Shown here: piece after piece, positions 1,774-6,364 of the stretch
Layout of the letters: every line of letters starts with the position of its first letter
Numbering within the stretch: position 1 is the stretch's first letter
DNA from: a virus
Taxonomy: Duplodnaviria > Heunggongvirae > Uroviricota > Caudoviricetes
DNA length: 9,294 nt
Strand: one strand, 5' to 3'
Virus record (IMG/VR): IMGVR_UViG_2695420698_000011
Position numbers and translations under genes: made by a program
The notes under the pieces: generated by a model
What the model was told of the DNA's origin: nothing
Database searches by the model: none
What the model saw: only the letters and a program-made list of their open reading frames with translations

Positions 1774-2832
1774 GTGCGGGTATTACTTCGACCTGTTCTG
1801 GTACCGGAACTCGGTCTGGTTATCGTTAAGCCAGGCCGTGAATCAATGTCAGCATTCCATAACGGCAGAATACTGGTGGAGCCGGAACCAAAAAGCATGC
1901 GTAATCTGCCGTCCGGGGTCGTTCCTGCCGCTCGCCAGCCGCTGGTGGAAGACAAAACATTGCTGCCGTTTTTCAGTAACGCACGGGTGATTCGTGCTGC
2001 TGGTGGTGCTGGTGCATTGTCTGACTGGCTGTTGCGCCATATTAAATCCTGCCAGTGGCCACACGGCGATTATCATCACAGCGAAACCGTCATTCACCGT
2101 TATGGTACCGGCGCAATGGTGTTGTGCTGGCACTGCGACAACCAGCTGCGTGACCAGACATCCGAATCACTCGAGCAACTTGCTCATCAAAACCTGTCAG
2201 CATGGATGATTGACGTCATCGGTCACGCAATAAGCGGTACGCAGGAGCGTGAATTATCTCTGGCTGAATTATCCTGGTGGGCGGTCCGCAATCAGGTGGC
2301 GGACGCGCTACCGGAAGCGGTATTACGTCGTTCGCTGGGGTTGCGTGCGGAAAAAATTCGCTCTGTGTACAGTGAAAGCGACATCATACCGGGAGAGCAG
2401 ACAGCCACCAGCATACTGAAGCAGCGCACAAAAAATATTGCGTTACTGCCTCACGTCCACCAGCAACAGAACCCACCACAGGAAAAGACGGTGGTCAGCA
2501 TTGCCGTTGATCCGGAGTCACCGGCTCAGTATCTCCAGCGCCAGAAATCACAACGGGAAGAGATGCCTGTATACACGCGCTGGGTAAAAACGCAGAAATG
2601 CATGACGTGTGGCAATCAGGCAGATGATCCGCATCACATCATTGGTCATGGACTGGGAGGGATGGGAACAAAGGCTGATGATTTGTTTGTTATTCCGTTA
2701 TGCCGTAAATGCCGTAACGAACTACATGCCGGAGTAAAAGATTTTGAAGAGAAACACGGCAGTCAGCTGTTGTTGCTGATTCGTTTTTTAATGCACGCGA
2801 GAAATTCGGGTGTTCTGAAGTGGAAAGCATAA
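1774..2832 (+). CDS. ydfU: DUF968-family phage protein (YdfU-like), 352 aa, with C-terminal CxxC...HH...CxxC HNH-like zinc motif
   Basis: Long ORF; GGAGG at 1765-1769 (short spacing to GTG 1774, so start is uncertain). C-terminus KCMTCGNQADDPHHIIGHG...LCRKCRNELH looks like an HNH/zinc-ribbon nuclease fold. Lies upstream of rusA and Q as in Qin-like prophages. Confidence 0.75.
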   Translation: MRVLLRPVLVPELGLVIVKPGRESMSAFHNGRILVEPEPKSMRNLPSGVVPAARQPLVEDKTLLPFFSNARVIRAAGGAGALSDWLLRHIKSCQWPHGDYHHSETVIHRYGTGAMVLCWHCDNQLRDQTSESLEQLAHQNLSAWMIDVIGHAISGTQERELSLAELSWWAVRNQVADALPEAVLRRSLGLRAEKIRSVYSESDIIPGEQTATSILKQRTKNIALLPHVHQQQNPPQEKTVVSIAVDPESPAQYLQRQKSQREEMPVYTRWVKTQKCMTCGNQADDPHHIIGHGLGGMGTKADDLFVIPLCRKCRNELHAGVKDFEEKHGSQLLLLIRFLMHARNSGVLKWKA

Positions 2833-2926
2833 ATGACCGAGCGCATAGAATTTGTTTTACCTTACCCGCCGACGGTGAACACTTACTGGCGTCGTCGTGG
2901 CAGCACATATTTTGTATCAAAAGCCG
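2833..2926 (+). pseudogene. 5' fragment of a second rusA allele (MTERIEFVLPYPPTVNTYWRRRGSTYFVSKA), cut off by a 7-N gap
   Basis: ATG 2833 directly follows the ydfU stop (TAA 2830-2832); the 31 codons parallel the start of the intact rusA at 3467 (LPYPPTVNTYWRRR...YFVSKAG) with nucleotide differences; sequence ends at N 2927-2933. Confidence 0.6.
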
Positions 2927-2933
2927 NNNNNNN
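2927..2933. other. 7-nt N run (assembly gap/join)
   Basis: Literal n characters; sequence on either side is not contiguous in reading frame or content. Confidence 0.95.
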
Positions 2934-3037
2934 ACAATTGCGATCTTTTCCTGTGTGGTACGCCGTCTGCGTTTCTCCGGCCCTAAGACATCAATCATCT
3001 GTACTCCAATGACTAGTCTAAAAACTAGTATTAAGAC

Positions 3038-3057
3038 TATCACTTATTTAAGTGATA
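3038..3057. promoter_or_regulatory. perfect 9-2-9 palindrome TATCACTTA-TT-TAAGTGATA, candidate protein-binding (operator-like) site
   Basis: Arms are exact reverse complements; half-site TATCAC resembles lambdoid operator half-sites; preceded by two ACTAGT palindromes at 3012-3017 and 3024-3029. No U-tract follows, so it is unlikely to be a terminator. Confidence 0.3.
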
Positions 3058-3224
3058 CTGGTTGTCTGGAGATTCAGGGGGCCAGTCTACGGACATTTTC
3101 TGCCTGTGGACCAGGAAAGTGCACGGGTGCTTTCCACTCCCATGAAGCCCGGCAATCCGCGCAGATACAGTAATAAACGAACTGACAGCAGTAAGATGGA
3201 GCGTTTCTTTTGAACAACCAGACA

Positions 3225-3467
3225 ATGACTTTTACCCCTGAACAATTGCGTAAACACGCGCAGGAAATGCTGCGTCATGCTGAACAACTCGAAAAAACGG
3301 GCATAACAAAAGACGCTATCCGTAAAGATATGGTACCCGCGCTTCGGGAACTGATGCAGGCGAAGCATCGCGCACAGAAAGCAGTAGATGAGCTGGTGGA
3401 CTGTGTGGCAGAGCTGGAAACCAGAGTCGGAAAGTTTGAAAAACTGGTGCAGGAGGTGCTGCGCTGA
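3225..3467 (+). CDS. hypothetical small coiled-coil-like protein, 80 aa from ATG 3225 (the track starts at TTG 3210)
   Basis: ORF track; stop TGA 3465-3467 overlaps rusA ATG 3467; N-terminus MTFTPEQLRKHAQE is paralogous to the ORF at 405. No clear SD. Confidence 0.5.
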   Translation: MTFTPEQLRKHAQEMLRHAEQLEKTGITKDAIRKDMVPALRELMQAKHRAQKAVDELVDCVAELETRVGKFEKLVQEVLR

Positions 3468-3841
3468 TGCGCCATGAGTTTATTTTACCTTATCCGCCGA
3501 CGGTGAATACTTACTGGCGACGTCGTGACAACACATATTTTGTATCAAAAGCCGGTGAGCGTTATCGCCGGGATGTGGCGCTTATTGTCCGTCAGCAGCG
3601 ACTGAAATTAAGCCTGTCCGGAAGACTGGCGATAAAGATTATTGCAGAGCCACCGGATAAGCGCCGTCGTGACCTGGACAATATCCTGAAAGCACCACTG
3701 GATGCACTGACACATGCGGGAGTGTTAATGGACGATGAGCAGTTTGATGAAATCAATATCGTTCGTGGTCAGCCAGTATCTGGTGGACGTCTGGGGGTGA
3801 AGATTTACCCCATAATGCATGAAGAGCAGGTCAAAAAATGA
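3467..3841 (+). CDS. rusA: RusA-family Holliday junction resolvase, 124 aa
   Basis: Translation has the RusA hallmarks as I recall them (LPYPPTVNTYWRRR..., RRDLDNILKAPLDALT, GVLMDDEQF) and typical size; stop overlaps the Q start at 3838 (ATGA). Confidence 0.85.
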   Translation: MRHEFILPYPPTVNTYWRRRDNTYFVSKAGERYRRDVALIVRQQRLKLSLSGRLAIKIIAEPPDKRRRDLDNILKAPLDALTHAGVLMDDEQFDEINIVRGQPVSGGRLGVKIYPIMHEEQVKK

Positions 3842-4398
3842 AACTGGAAGATTTACCGAAATACTACTCCCCAAAATCCCCTTGCCTGACCGATGCATCG
3901 GCCTCAACGTCAAAAGATGCGCTGAGTATCACTGATGTGATGGCCGCGCAGGGCATGACACAGAATCGGGCTGAGATGGGGTTTTCTGCGTTCCTGGGGA
4001 AAATGGGCATCAGTATGAATGACAGGGCGCGGGCAACAGAATTACTGGCAGATTATGCACTCAGTCGGTGCGATCGTGTGGCGGCGTTGAGAAAACTTCC
4101 GGCAGAAATAAAACCGGTAGTGATGCGCATTATGGCTTCGTACGCTTTTGAGGATTATGCCCGCAGCGCAGCGAGTAAAAAGCAGTGCCCTTGTTGCTAT
4201 GGGGAAAAATTTATTGAAAGCGTAGTTTTTACAAACAAGGTCCAGTATCCGGATGGTAAGCCGCCGGTATGGGCAAAGTGTACGAAAGGTGTGTATCCGT
4301 CTTACTGGGAAGAATGGAAAAAAGTCAGGGAGGTGGTAAAAGTTGCCTGTCCGGAGTGTGGCGGAAAGGGTGAGNTTCCTTGGGAAAATGGGCATTAG
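3838..4398 (+). pseudogene. Q antiterminator copy A: N-terminal 179 codons intact to 4374, then frame runs through an ambiguous base (4375) into a diverged repeat
   Basis: ATG 3838 coupled to rusA stop; translation identical to the 4672..5427 ORF over the shared region up to CPECGGKGE; base 4375 is n and the downstream sequence restarts an internal part of the same gene. Confidence 0.6.
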
Positions 4399-4623
4399 TA
4401 TGAATGACAGAGAGCGGGCAACAGAATTGCTGACAGAATATGCACTCAGTCGGTGTGATCGCGTGGCGGCGTTAAGAAAACTCCCGGCAGAAATAAAACC
4501 GGCAGTGATGCGTATTATGGCTTCGTATGCGTTTGAAGATTATGCCCGTAGCGCGGCGAGCAAAAAACAGTGCCCCTGCTGTCACGGAAAAAAATTTATT
4601 GAAAGCGAGGTTTTTACAAACAA
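4376..4623 (+). repeat. diverged internal Q-gene fragment (copy B), bounded by single n at 4375 and 4624
   Basis: Aligns to 3991-4238 of copy A with scattered substitutions (protein ARATELLADY to ERATELLTEY, CYGEK to CHGKK); looks like an allele from another prophage. Confidence 0.7.
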
Positions 4624-4671
4624 NCCGATGCATCGGCCTCAACGTCAAAAGATGCGCTGAGTATCACTGAT

Positions 4672-5427
4672 GTGATGGCCGCGCAGGGCATGACACAGAA
4701 TCGGGCTGAGATGGGGTTTTCTGCGTTCCTGGGGAAAATGGGCATCAGTATGAATGACAGGGCGCGGGCAACAGAATTACTGGCAGATTATGCACTCAGT
4801 CGGTGCGATCGTGTGGCGGCGTTGAGAAAACTTCCGGCAGAAATAAAACCGGTAGTGATGCGCATTATGGCTTCGTACGCTTTTGAGGATTATGCCCGCA
4901 GCGCAGCGAGTAAAAAGCAGTGCCCTTGTTGCTATGGGGAAAAATTTATTGAAAGCGTAGTTTTTACAAACAAGGTCCAGTATCCGGATGGTAAGCCGCC
5001 GGTATGGGCAAAGTGTACGAAAGGTGTGTATCCGTCTTACTGGGAAGAATGGAAAAAAGTCAGGGAGGTGGTAAAAGTTGCCTGTCCGGAGTGTGGCGGA
5101 AAGGGTGAGGTTTCCACCGCCTGTAAGGATTGCCGTGGGCGTGGTGTCGCCATTCATCGTGAAGAGTCGGTAAAACGTGGTATGCCTGTTATCAGAGACT
5201 GCCAGCGTTGTGGTGGTCGTGGCTATGAAAGACTACCATCAACGGAGGCATTTAATGCTATATGCGAGGTGACAAACCAGATAACACGCGCGTCATGGGA
5301 AAAAACAGTTAAGAAATTCTATGATGCGCTGGTGACTCGGTTTGATATTGAAGAAGCATGGGCTGAGCGGCAGTTAAAAAAGGTAACTAGGTTGATTTTT
5401 CCGGAATCTGTGGTAAATTCGTCATAA
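4672..5427 (+). CDS. Q-like late antiterminator, 251 aa ORF (copy C), with four CxxCxGxG-type zinc-finger repeats
   Basis: Intact ORF to TAA 5425-5427 immediately upstream of a lambda-like PR'/pause element; sequence from 4625 repeats copy A 3888-4374 exactly as far as I can read. The authentic protein probably starts at ATG 3838 (about 283 aa if the duplication is artifactual). Family call rests on position and size. Confidence 0.7.
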   Translation: MMAAQGMTQNRAEMGFSAFLGKMGISMNDRARATELLADYALSRCDRVAALRKLPAEIKPVVMRIMASYAFEDYARSAASKKQCPCCYGEKFIESVVFTNKVQYPDGKPPVWAKCTKGVYPSYWEEWKKVREVVKVACPECGGKGEVSTACKDCRGRGVAIHREESVKRGMPVIRDCQRCGGRGYERLPSTEAFNAICEVTNQITRASWEKTVKKFYDALVTRFDIEEAWAERQLKKVTRLIFPESVVNSS

Positions 5428-5431
5428 CGAT
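5392..5431 (+). promoter_or_regulatory. PR'-like late promoter with sigma70-dependent pause element (-35 TTGATT, extended -10 TGgTAAATT, then AACGATGGG at about +1..+9)
   Basis: TTGATT 5392-5397, 16-nt spacer, TAAATT 5414-5419 preceded by TG, then 6 nt and AACGAT 5426-5431. This matches my recollection of lambda PR' (GGGTAAATT-6nt-AACGATGGG). Confidence 0.65.
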
Positions 5432-5466
5432 GGGCGTTTTATGCCTGACGTTAGAAGAGTTTCTAC

Positions 5467-5490
5467 AACCCGCCGCCGAGCGGGTTTTTT
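5467..5490 (+). terminator. rho-independent terminator (tR'-like): AACCCGC-CGCCGA-GCGGGTT plus TTTTTT
   Basis: GC stem 5469-5473/5480-5484 with a 6-T run 5485-5490, about 40-65 nt downstream of the proposed PR' start. Confidence 0.75.
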
Positions 5491-5610
5491 ATGACTGAAA
5501 TCGCGTCAGTACAGTAAACGCGCTGGTGGCGGTGAATACCTGTCTTTCAGCTTGCTGGCTTTTTCGACAAGAGTTATTGGTGTGTCACGTTAACCGGAAA
5601 AGGAAAAGAC

Positions 5611-5808
5611 ATGCTAAAACAGCAGGATATGACAGAAACCGCCAGAGTGGTGTTTAATGAATTAAGCGTTACCGAACCGGCGACAGTCGGGGAGATAGCG
5701 CAGAATACTTACCTTTCACGCGAACGCTGCCAGTTAATACTGACCCAGCTGGTTATGGCGGGTCTGGCAGACTATCAGTTCGGTTGTTACAGACGCCTTC
5801 CGCAGTGA
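5611..5808 (+). CDS. small winged-helix-like DNA-binding protein, 65 aa
   Basis: ORF track; AAGGA 5600-5604, 6 nt before ATG 5611; segment ATVGEIAQNTYLSRERCQLILTQLVMAGLADY looks like an HTH recognition helix plus wing; stop lies inside a terminator hairpin. Confidence 0.55.
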   Translation: MLKQQDMTETARVVFNELSVTEPATVGEIAQNTYLSRERCQLILTQLVMAGLADYQFGCYRRLPQ

Positions 5809-5820
5809 AGGCTTTTTTAT
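5795..5820 (+). terminator. rho-independent terminator: GCCTTC-CGCAGT-GAAGGC plus TTTTTTATTT
   Basis: Perfect 6-bp GC-rich stem with the stop codon in the loop, followed by a T-run. Confidence 0.7.
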
Positions 5821-5866
5821 TTGTGGTAAATGGGCGGCTGGTGGGTGTTAGGGGCACCCACCAGCC

Positions 5867-6364
5867 NNNNNNNNNNNNNNNNNNNNNNNNNNNNNNNNNN
5901 NNNNNNNNNNNNNNNNNNNNNNNNNNNNNNNNNNNNNNNNNNNNNNNNNNNNNNNNNNNNNNNNNNNNNNNNNNNNNNNNNNNNNNNNNNNNNNNNNNNN
6001 NNNNNNNNNNNNNNNNNNNNNNNNNNNNNNNNNNNNNNNNNNNNNNNNNNNNNNNNNNNNNNNNNNNNNNNNNNNNNNNNNNNNNNNNNNNNNNNNNNNN
6101 NNNNNNNNNNNNNNNNNNNNNNNNNNNNNNNNNNNNNNNNNNNNNNNNNNNNNNNNNNNNNNNNNNNNNNNNNNNNNNNNNNNNNNNNNNNNNNNNNNNN
6201 NNNNNNNNNNNNNNNNNNNNNNNNNNNNNNNNNNNNNNNNNNNNNNNNNNNNNNNNNNNNNNNNNNNNNNNNNNNNNNNNNNNNNNNNNNNNNNNNNNNN
6301 NNNNNNNNNNNNNNNNNNNNNNNNNNNNNNNNNNNNNNNNNNNNNNNNNNNNNNNNNNNNNNNN
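5867..6364. other. 498-nt N run (masked or unsequenced)
   Basis: Literal n characters; hides the 5' part of the methyltransferase gene and anything between the terminator and that gene. Confidence 0.95.

Follow-up and report, generated by a model that had tools for sequence, protein, structure and literature searches.

The closest described system to the locus considered here is the left end of the insertion sequence IS2, a member of the IS3 family. Its left inverted repeat (IRL) is 42 bp long and serves as the transposase-binding and recipient end, and the tetramer TGAT at IS2 nt 48–51 marks the start of P_IRL, a weak promoter of the extended −10 type from which the IS2 proteins are expressed (Lewis et al., 2012; PMC3299598). 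Hydroxyl-radical footprinting with a transposase preparation that contained both OrfAB-GFP and OrfA showed strong protection of nt 39–42 (TTAA) and nt 43–48 (ATAAGT), a 10-bp stretch that includes the proposed docking site, 5'-TAAATAA-3', of the 14-kDa OrfA (InsA) repressor; the published footprint and docking site thus comprise nt 39–48 and TAAATAA, and not the whole of the 20-bp dyad described below (PMC3299598). OrfA has been reported to bind this IRL site, to compete with the transposase, and to repress P_IRL (Hu et al., 1994, cited in PMC3299598). Autoregulation of a similar kind is described for IS1 InsA and for a truncated IS30 transposase, in each of which a short HTH protein with the transposase DNA-binding domain binds a terminal repeat that overlaps the promoter, represses transcription, and competes with the transposase; these belong to other IS families and involve other sequences, while repression of this kind is not exerted by the OrfA of IS911, another IS3-family element (PMC3299598).

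Dyad-symmetric repressor sites that overlap a promoter are also found at OR and OL of lambda, where CI and Cro bind 17-bp sites arranged as tandem triplets between cI and cro. Operators of P22 are built from ATTTAAG-type half-sites.

The window analyzed here is the entire 9,294-bp NCBI scaffold CXCP01000164.1 (assembly GCA_001257415.1), in which seven contigs are joined by six runs of N (2927–2933, 4375, 4624, 5867–6364, 8121–8242, and 8613–9192), two of them a single N. An initial annotation, made from the sequence alone, had described an operator-like palindrome within a 290-nt stretch of this window that it considered otherwise unassigned. That stretch proves to be fully assignable, with the left end of IS2 at 2934–3089 and the 3'-terminal part of a prophage helicase gene at 3090–3213; the 7-N run at 2927–2933, which the initial annotation did not mention, sits within it. 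For annotation purposes, the supposedly unassigned DNA reads as a scaffold gap, followed by an IS2 end, followed by a truncated helicase gene. We consider it close to certain that the stretch is the left end of an IS2 copy that lies on the minus strand and interrupts a prophage replicative helicase gene 124 nt ahead of its stop codon. The main value of the analysis is in this correction: what appeared to be an orphan phage operator is almost certainly the left end, with its regulatory sites, of an insertion sequence that is very common.

Identity and anatomy of the IS2 left end

Querying complete Escherichia coli genomes with positions 2934–3209 (megablast) returned 21,121 matching places in 4,698 of 5,426 genomes, and these places fall under genes annotated as "IS3-like element IS2 family transposase." In alignments to two IS2 copies from unrelated surroundings, one at glmS-pstS and the other in a type VI secretion locus, a near-perfect match with one or two mismatches ends exactly at 3089, beyond which only random similarity is seen. 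The window therefore contains the first 156 bp of IS2 (2934–3089, minus strand), with IS2 nt 1 at window position 3089 and nt 156 at 2934. This fragment is 100% identical to a copy on a Shigella sonnei plasmid and 98.7% identical to the IS2 of the F plasmid, in each case over all 156 nt, above the threshold of about 95% nucleotide identity taken to define the same element. The terminus is likewise that of IS2, with a 42-bp IRL that opens with TAGACTGG and similarity that stops at 3089. One of the two aligned loci supplied a complete IS2 copy of 1331 bp, with IRL, right inverted repeat (IRR), and a 5-bp target duplication, TGCCC; its left end reads TAGACTGGCCCCCTGAATCTCCAGACAACCAGTATCACTTAA and its right end TGGATTTGCCCCTATATTTCCAGACA..TTATCACTTAA. 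At nt 32 and nt 87, the copy in the window has G and T, respectively; Shigella flexneri and E. coli copies with this variant were also seen.

A full IS2 element carries orfA and orfB joined by a programmed −1 frameshift (A6G), a DDE transposase domain, and a 41-bp IRR, and it is flanked by a duplicated target site of 5 bp. In the window, assembly covers no more than the first 156 bp, and the frameshift site, orfB with its DDE domain, the IRR, and the second copy of the target site lie beyond the N run at 2927–2933; the 5 bp adjoining the IRL are CGGAC (3090–3094). Over the part that is present, the window shares with reference IS2 the terminus, the positions of the dyad, extended −10, ribosome-binding site, and orfA start codon, as well as the OrfA N-terminus, and the two show no difference of substance. 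A left end with P_IRL and an OrfA/InsA operator is already known for this element.

At the center of the feature is the palindrome at 3038–3057 (IS2 nt 33–52), which the initial annotation had correctly described as a perfect 9-2-9 inverted repeat. Its arms, TATCACTTA at 3038–3046 and TAAGTGATA at 3049–3057, are 100% complementary across a 2-nt spacer; the palindrome is single in the window even when up to three mismatches are allowed, and none of 200 shuffled sequences gave a match. It is centered on the inner boundary of the IRL (3048–3089, minus strand; IS2 nt 1–42), as located by comparison with the complete 1331-bp element and its IRR. The outer half-site (nt 33–41) corresponds to element III, a conserved part of the IRL; just inside the IRL follows the inner half-site (nt 44–52), its mirror copy, which overlaps the −10. 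The half-site TTATCACTTAA recurs in the IRR, which makes the inner half-site a third, mirrored copy.

Read inward from 3089, the layout begins with the 42-bp IRL, the binding site of the transposase OrfAB, followed by the 20-bp dyad TATCACTTA-AA-TAAGTGATA, formed by the innermost IRL element and its mirror copy. The weak extended −10 of P_IRL, TGATAGTCT (3034–3042, minus strand; IS2 nt 48–56), comes next, overlapping the inner half of the dyad. Beyond it lies a short leader with the two ACTAGT hexamers (3024–3029 and 3012–3017, minus strand; IS2 nt 61–66 and 73–78) and the GGAG ribosome-binding site of orfA (3004–3007, minus strand; IS2 nt 83–86), and then the orfA start codon, ATG at 2998–2996 (minus strand; IS2 nt 92–94). 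The two ACTAGT palindromes stand where the initial annotation had placed them, ahead of the 9-2-9 repeat.

The position of orfA, about 91 nt inside the left end, is that expected in IS2 for the gene of the HTH protein. Its first 21 codons (2934–2998, minus strand), encoding the N-terminal part shared by the HTH repressor and the transposase, are present before the N run cuts the gene, and the encoded peptide is identical to the N-terminus of IS2 OrfA. Full-length OrfA matches the Pfam family HTH_Tnp_1 (E = 1.8e-19), and the product is named "IS2 repressor TnpA" in some database records. Between 2800 and 3500, neither a two-hexamer promoter scan nor a terminator scan gave a hit; the former does not recognize P_IRL, as is expected for a promoter of the extended −10 type that lacks a −35 element. 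Nothing in 2900–3250 matched Rfam at the gathering score.

Two further repeats were observed here. The decamer TAGACTAGTC (3010–3019; IS2 nt 70–79) includes the second ACTAGT and matches the IS2 terminus TAGACTGGCC at 8 of 10 positions. Additionally, TAGTCT, the −10 hexamer, and AGACTA form a further inverted pair that flanks the first ACTAGT.

The dyad as a candidate OrfA operator

The residues of the published footprint, docking site, and −10 match the window base for base, and TAAATAA is the center of the palindrome. The site thus occupies the position described for the OrfA/InsA operator of IS2, nt 39–48 overlapping the extended −10 TGATAGTCT. Judged from the sequence together with the published binding data, the palindrome is very probably a protein-binding operator. 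In the mechanism that the literature suggests, the 14-kDa HTH protein OrfA (InsA) would act at the dyad by competing with the transposase and repressing P_IRL, and would thereby keep transposase synthesis low. We infer that two OrfA subunits, as a dimer, would place one HTH in each half-site, and that their binding would occlude RNA polymerase.

It is quite possible, as a tentative proposal, that the OrfA operator of IS2-group elements extends beyond the TAAATAA core to the whole dyad, read by an OrfA dimer, and that this architecture has been kept by compensatory evolution across IS2, ISEc27, ISEcl2-like, and Aeromonas elements. Members of the last three groups resemble IS2 in having an IRL of about 42 bp, an innermost element that forms a dyad with its mirror copy, an invariant TAGTCT abutting that dyad, a leader, and orfA. 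ISEc27-type elements are about 85% identical to IS2 in DNA; the segment just outside the dyad is wholly different (AACCA to GTTGG), and TATCACT...AGTGATA, the −10, and the leader are invariant between the two. In more distant relatives the half-sites themselves differ from those of IS2, with CTCTTA or CCTCTTAA in place of ATCACTTA and spacers among IS2 relatives of 1–3 nt. An ISEcl2-like element (OrfA 78% identical) has the dyad CTCTTA-AAA-TAAGAG, and in Aeromonas elements, whose OrfA is 82% identical, the dyad is perfect and reads CCTCTTAA-C-TTAAGAGG. In both the ISEcl2-like and the Aeromonas relatives, the IRR half-sites shift in the same direction, to TCTCTCTTA and TCCCGCTTA. In an alignment of 11 sequences, 86.7% of arm cells were complementary, as compared with at most 59% when the partners were slid; two dyad positions had changed on both arms, and the −10 hexamer TAGTCT was invariant in all relatives aligned. 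As only about three independent lineages are represented, this covariation is suggestive rather than decisive. The retention of the dyad through mirrored changes is suggestive of recognition by a dimeric OrfA, to which it lends modest support.

An alternative is that the dyad is no repressor operator, and that its symmetry is a by-product of an outer half that serves as a transposase-binding IRL element and an inner half that serves the −10 or DNA bending. The published footprints, which were obtained with a mixed OrfAB/OrfA preparation and cover nt 39–48 and not the whole dyad, are compatible with such a reading, as is the overlap of the inner arm with an extended −10 that is itself under selection. 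However, lineages with another IRL half-site (CTCTTA, CCTCTTAA) show the mirrored change in the inner arm and an unaltered −10 hexamer, so that the symmetry itself appears to be selected; OrfA has, moreover, been reported to bind and repress at this site (Hu et al., 1994, cited in PMC3299598). We regard the by-product explanation as unlikely. A whole-dyad OrfA operator, if true, would refine the known biology of IS2 by a small step and would not be specific to this window.

A further possibility is that the palindrome, the ACTAGT twins, or both act as RNA hairpins in read-through transcripts or in transcripts from the minicircle-junction promoter, and so modulate translation of orfA; this would be compatible with an operator role for the palindrome. 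Transcripts starting upstream of P_IRL would include both inverted repeats, and the ACTAGT pair does fold into a 7-bp stem. The twins are invariant in IS2 and ISEc27-type elements; one relative has a 1-nt deletion between them, and this deletion is confined to the loop. However, the folding energy of the pair is no better than that of shuffled sequences (z = −0.79), and the ISEcl2-like and Aeromonas lineages, which lack the twin hexamers and show ACTATG..ACCAGT in their place, neither keep nor covary them. Neither stem touches the GGAG ribosome-binding site. An RNA-level function is accordingly rated as improbable, and the role of the ACTAGT twins is probably minor.

In addition to the mirrored evolution of the dyad, the two central nucleotides of the palindrome vary among IS2 copies. 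Among the matches listed from viral contigs, the center is AA in 97 copies, TT in 19, and AT or TA in none; the center also varies among copies in S. flexneri and E. coli ECMA0423. This pattern resembles a flip of the center in a single step more than a pair of point mutations, and hints at palindrome-mediated template switching. Mirrored dyad evolution across the IS2 subgroup and the AA/TT dimorphism are only mildly new, and concern IS2 in general and not this locus.

Two other observations arose from the same comparisons. One viral contig contains, around position 6662, two IS2 left ends arranged head to head and fused exactly at the palindrome center, so that the combined palindrome reaches 80 bp or more; the arrangement reflects either a rearrangement mediated by the palindrome or an artifact of assembly. 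Additionally, IS2 or ISEc27-type elements occur alone on contigs of 558–1543 bp in assemblies labeled Streptosporangium, Paenisporosarcina, Lamprocystis, and Brevibacterium, with OrfA 95–100% identical to that of IS2. These four cases are most simply explained as enterobacterial contamination.

The palindrome compared with phage operators

The palindrome had initially been proposed as a prophage operator of lambdoid or P22 type, whose repressor would be encoded elsewhere in the prophage. The resemblance that underlies this proposal is real, as TATCAC and GTGATA are the outer hexamers of the lambda OR3/OR1 half-sites and are common to lambda OR/OL and the IS2 dyad, and the surroundings are lambdoid prophage DNA, with DUF968, rusA, Q, and helicase genes. 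However, the geometry is not that of lambda. The palindrome is IS2 nt 33–52, a single 20-bp site in a transposable element with its hexamers 8 nt apart, whereas lambda OR1–3 are 17-bp sites with hexamers 5 nt apart; the comparison with lambda operators that the initial annotation had called for found no 17-bp TATCAC-N5-GTGATA arrangement in the window at up to two mismatches, and a lambda-type operator was rejected as a candidate. What we take to be one P22-type heptamer, ATTTAAG at 3046–3052, is without a partner at the right spacing.

The genomic setting also differs from that of an immunity region. In place of tandem operators between divergent repressor genes, there is one copy with no tandem set, in the replication and late-regulation region rather than between cI and cro, and its neighbors are IS2 orfA, the helicase 3' end, rusA, and Q. 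Intact versions of the interrupted helicase gene do not contain the palindrome. The view that no repressor gene lies nearby is not upheld either, as the palindrome lies 40 nt from the start of orfA (2998, minus strand); the gene was out of view because the scaffold gap cuts orfA after 21 codons.

The distribution of the palindrome points the same way. Its sequence belongs to IS2, and chromosomes and plasmids carry it at thousands of places outside phage DNA. Alongside the 21,121 E. coli places, nearly all of the listed viral matches are IS2: the palindrome occurrences listed fall on at least 120 viral contigs, with 116 of 121 in a clear IS2 context and four more in variant or truncated copies derived from IS2; the remaining one of the 121 is an unrelated AT-rich sequence. 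The initial annotation had held that the palindrome's being common in unrelated contexts would count against it, and so it does for a prophage operator, which we consider to have a negligible probability. As the palindrome is common because it is carried on a mobile element, this abundance does not refute operator function as such. A full-text literature search for the palindrome sequence matched only an unrelated Shigella phage-resistance paper.

The interrupted helicase gene and the scaffold

On the other side of the IS2 terminus, positions 3090–3213 (plus strand) are the last 124 nt, with 40 codons and the stop, of an IS2-truncated prophage replicative DNA helicase gene. A prophage of E. 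coli VL7S7 carries an intact helicase gene of 1392 nt, whose 3' end they match with 100% identity, and the frame 3091–3213 translates to the helicase C-terminus. Disruption of the replicative helicase probably leaves the prophage defective. Both sides of the 3089/3090 junction are on a single contig, and the junction is real. The exact junction has no match in species-representative genomes, and no place in the 5,426 E. coli genomes covers at least 80% of 2934–3209. As the junction is found in neither set, the insertion is private to the source assembly.

The GGAAAG..CTTTCC hairpin, which the initial annotation had associated with the palindrome, falls within this helicase remnant. The motif is present, with arms at 3114–3119 and 3130–3135, so that it spans 3114–3135 and not 3112–3133 as first given; it is incidental helicase coding sequence and no part of IS2 or of the palindrome's feature. 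Its RNA fold is not more stable than those of shuffled sequences (z = −1.07).

The 54-codon ATG open reading frame at 3009–3173, the inner part of a listed frame at 2820–3173, had been judged probably not real, and we concur that there is practically no chance of its encoding a small protein: the frame is uninterrupted from ATG to stop, but it is a chimera that runs antisense through the IS2 leader and IRL and crosses 3089/3090 into the wrong helicase frame, and the absence of this junction from the 5,426 E. coli genomes and the species-representative set means that it cannot be a conserved gene.

Some IS3-family elements target sequences that resemble their inverted repeats. In the flank at 3211–3242, three 8-mers are inverted matches to the IS2 IRL (3058–3080), including ACAACCAG and CCCCTGAA, as compared with 0.5 expected (P ~0.04, mononucleotide shuffling). 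These 8-mers are not collinear with the IRL and are probably due to chance, and an IR-like target site was rejected.

The 7-N gap at 2927–2933 separates two contigs and hides the rest of IS2. On its other side, the left-hand contig ends with the 5' 94 nt of rusA (2833–2926, plus strand), which follow a DUF968 gene (1774–2832) and lie outside the IS2 feature. The 23 nt that precede the gap recur without change at 3538–3560, inside a complete rusA at 3467–3841, and pieces of a Q antiterminator gene recur at 3476–4377, 4376–4623, and 4627–5866 when compared with one reference Q. These rusA and Q repeats across contigs indicate that the scaffold is a patchwork over repeats common to lambdoid prophages. 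The partial rusA (2833–2926, as compared with 3467–3560) fits a contig break at a repeat common to two lambdoid prophages better than a real rusA::IS2 junction, and the adjacency of rusA and IS2 is probably a scaffolding join. Gene order across the scaffold gaps is not to be trusted.

Other features were also observed in the window. A hok/sok type I toxin-antitoxin locus is present at 871–1196 (Rfam sok, 112 bits; Pfam HOK_GEF, E = 3e-23). A prophage tRNA cluster (Met-CAT, Arg-TCG, Arg-TCT) lies at 7171–7420, and a second tRNA-Arg(TCT), which may be a scaffold duplication, lies at 8257–8333 after an N run. The sRNA STnc100 is found at 8410–8599 (124 bits).
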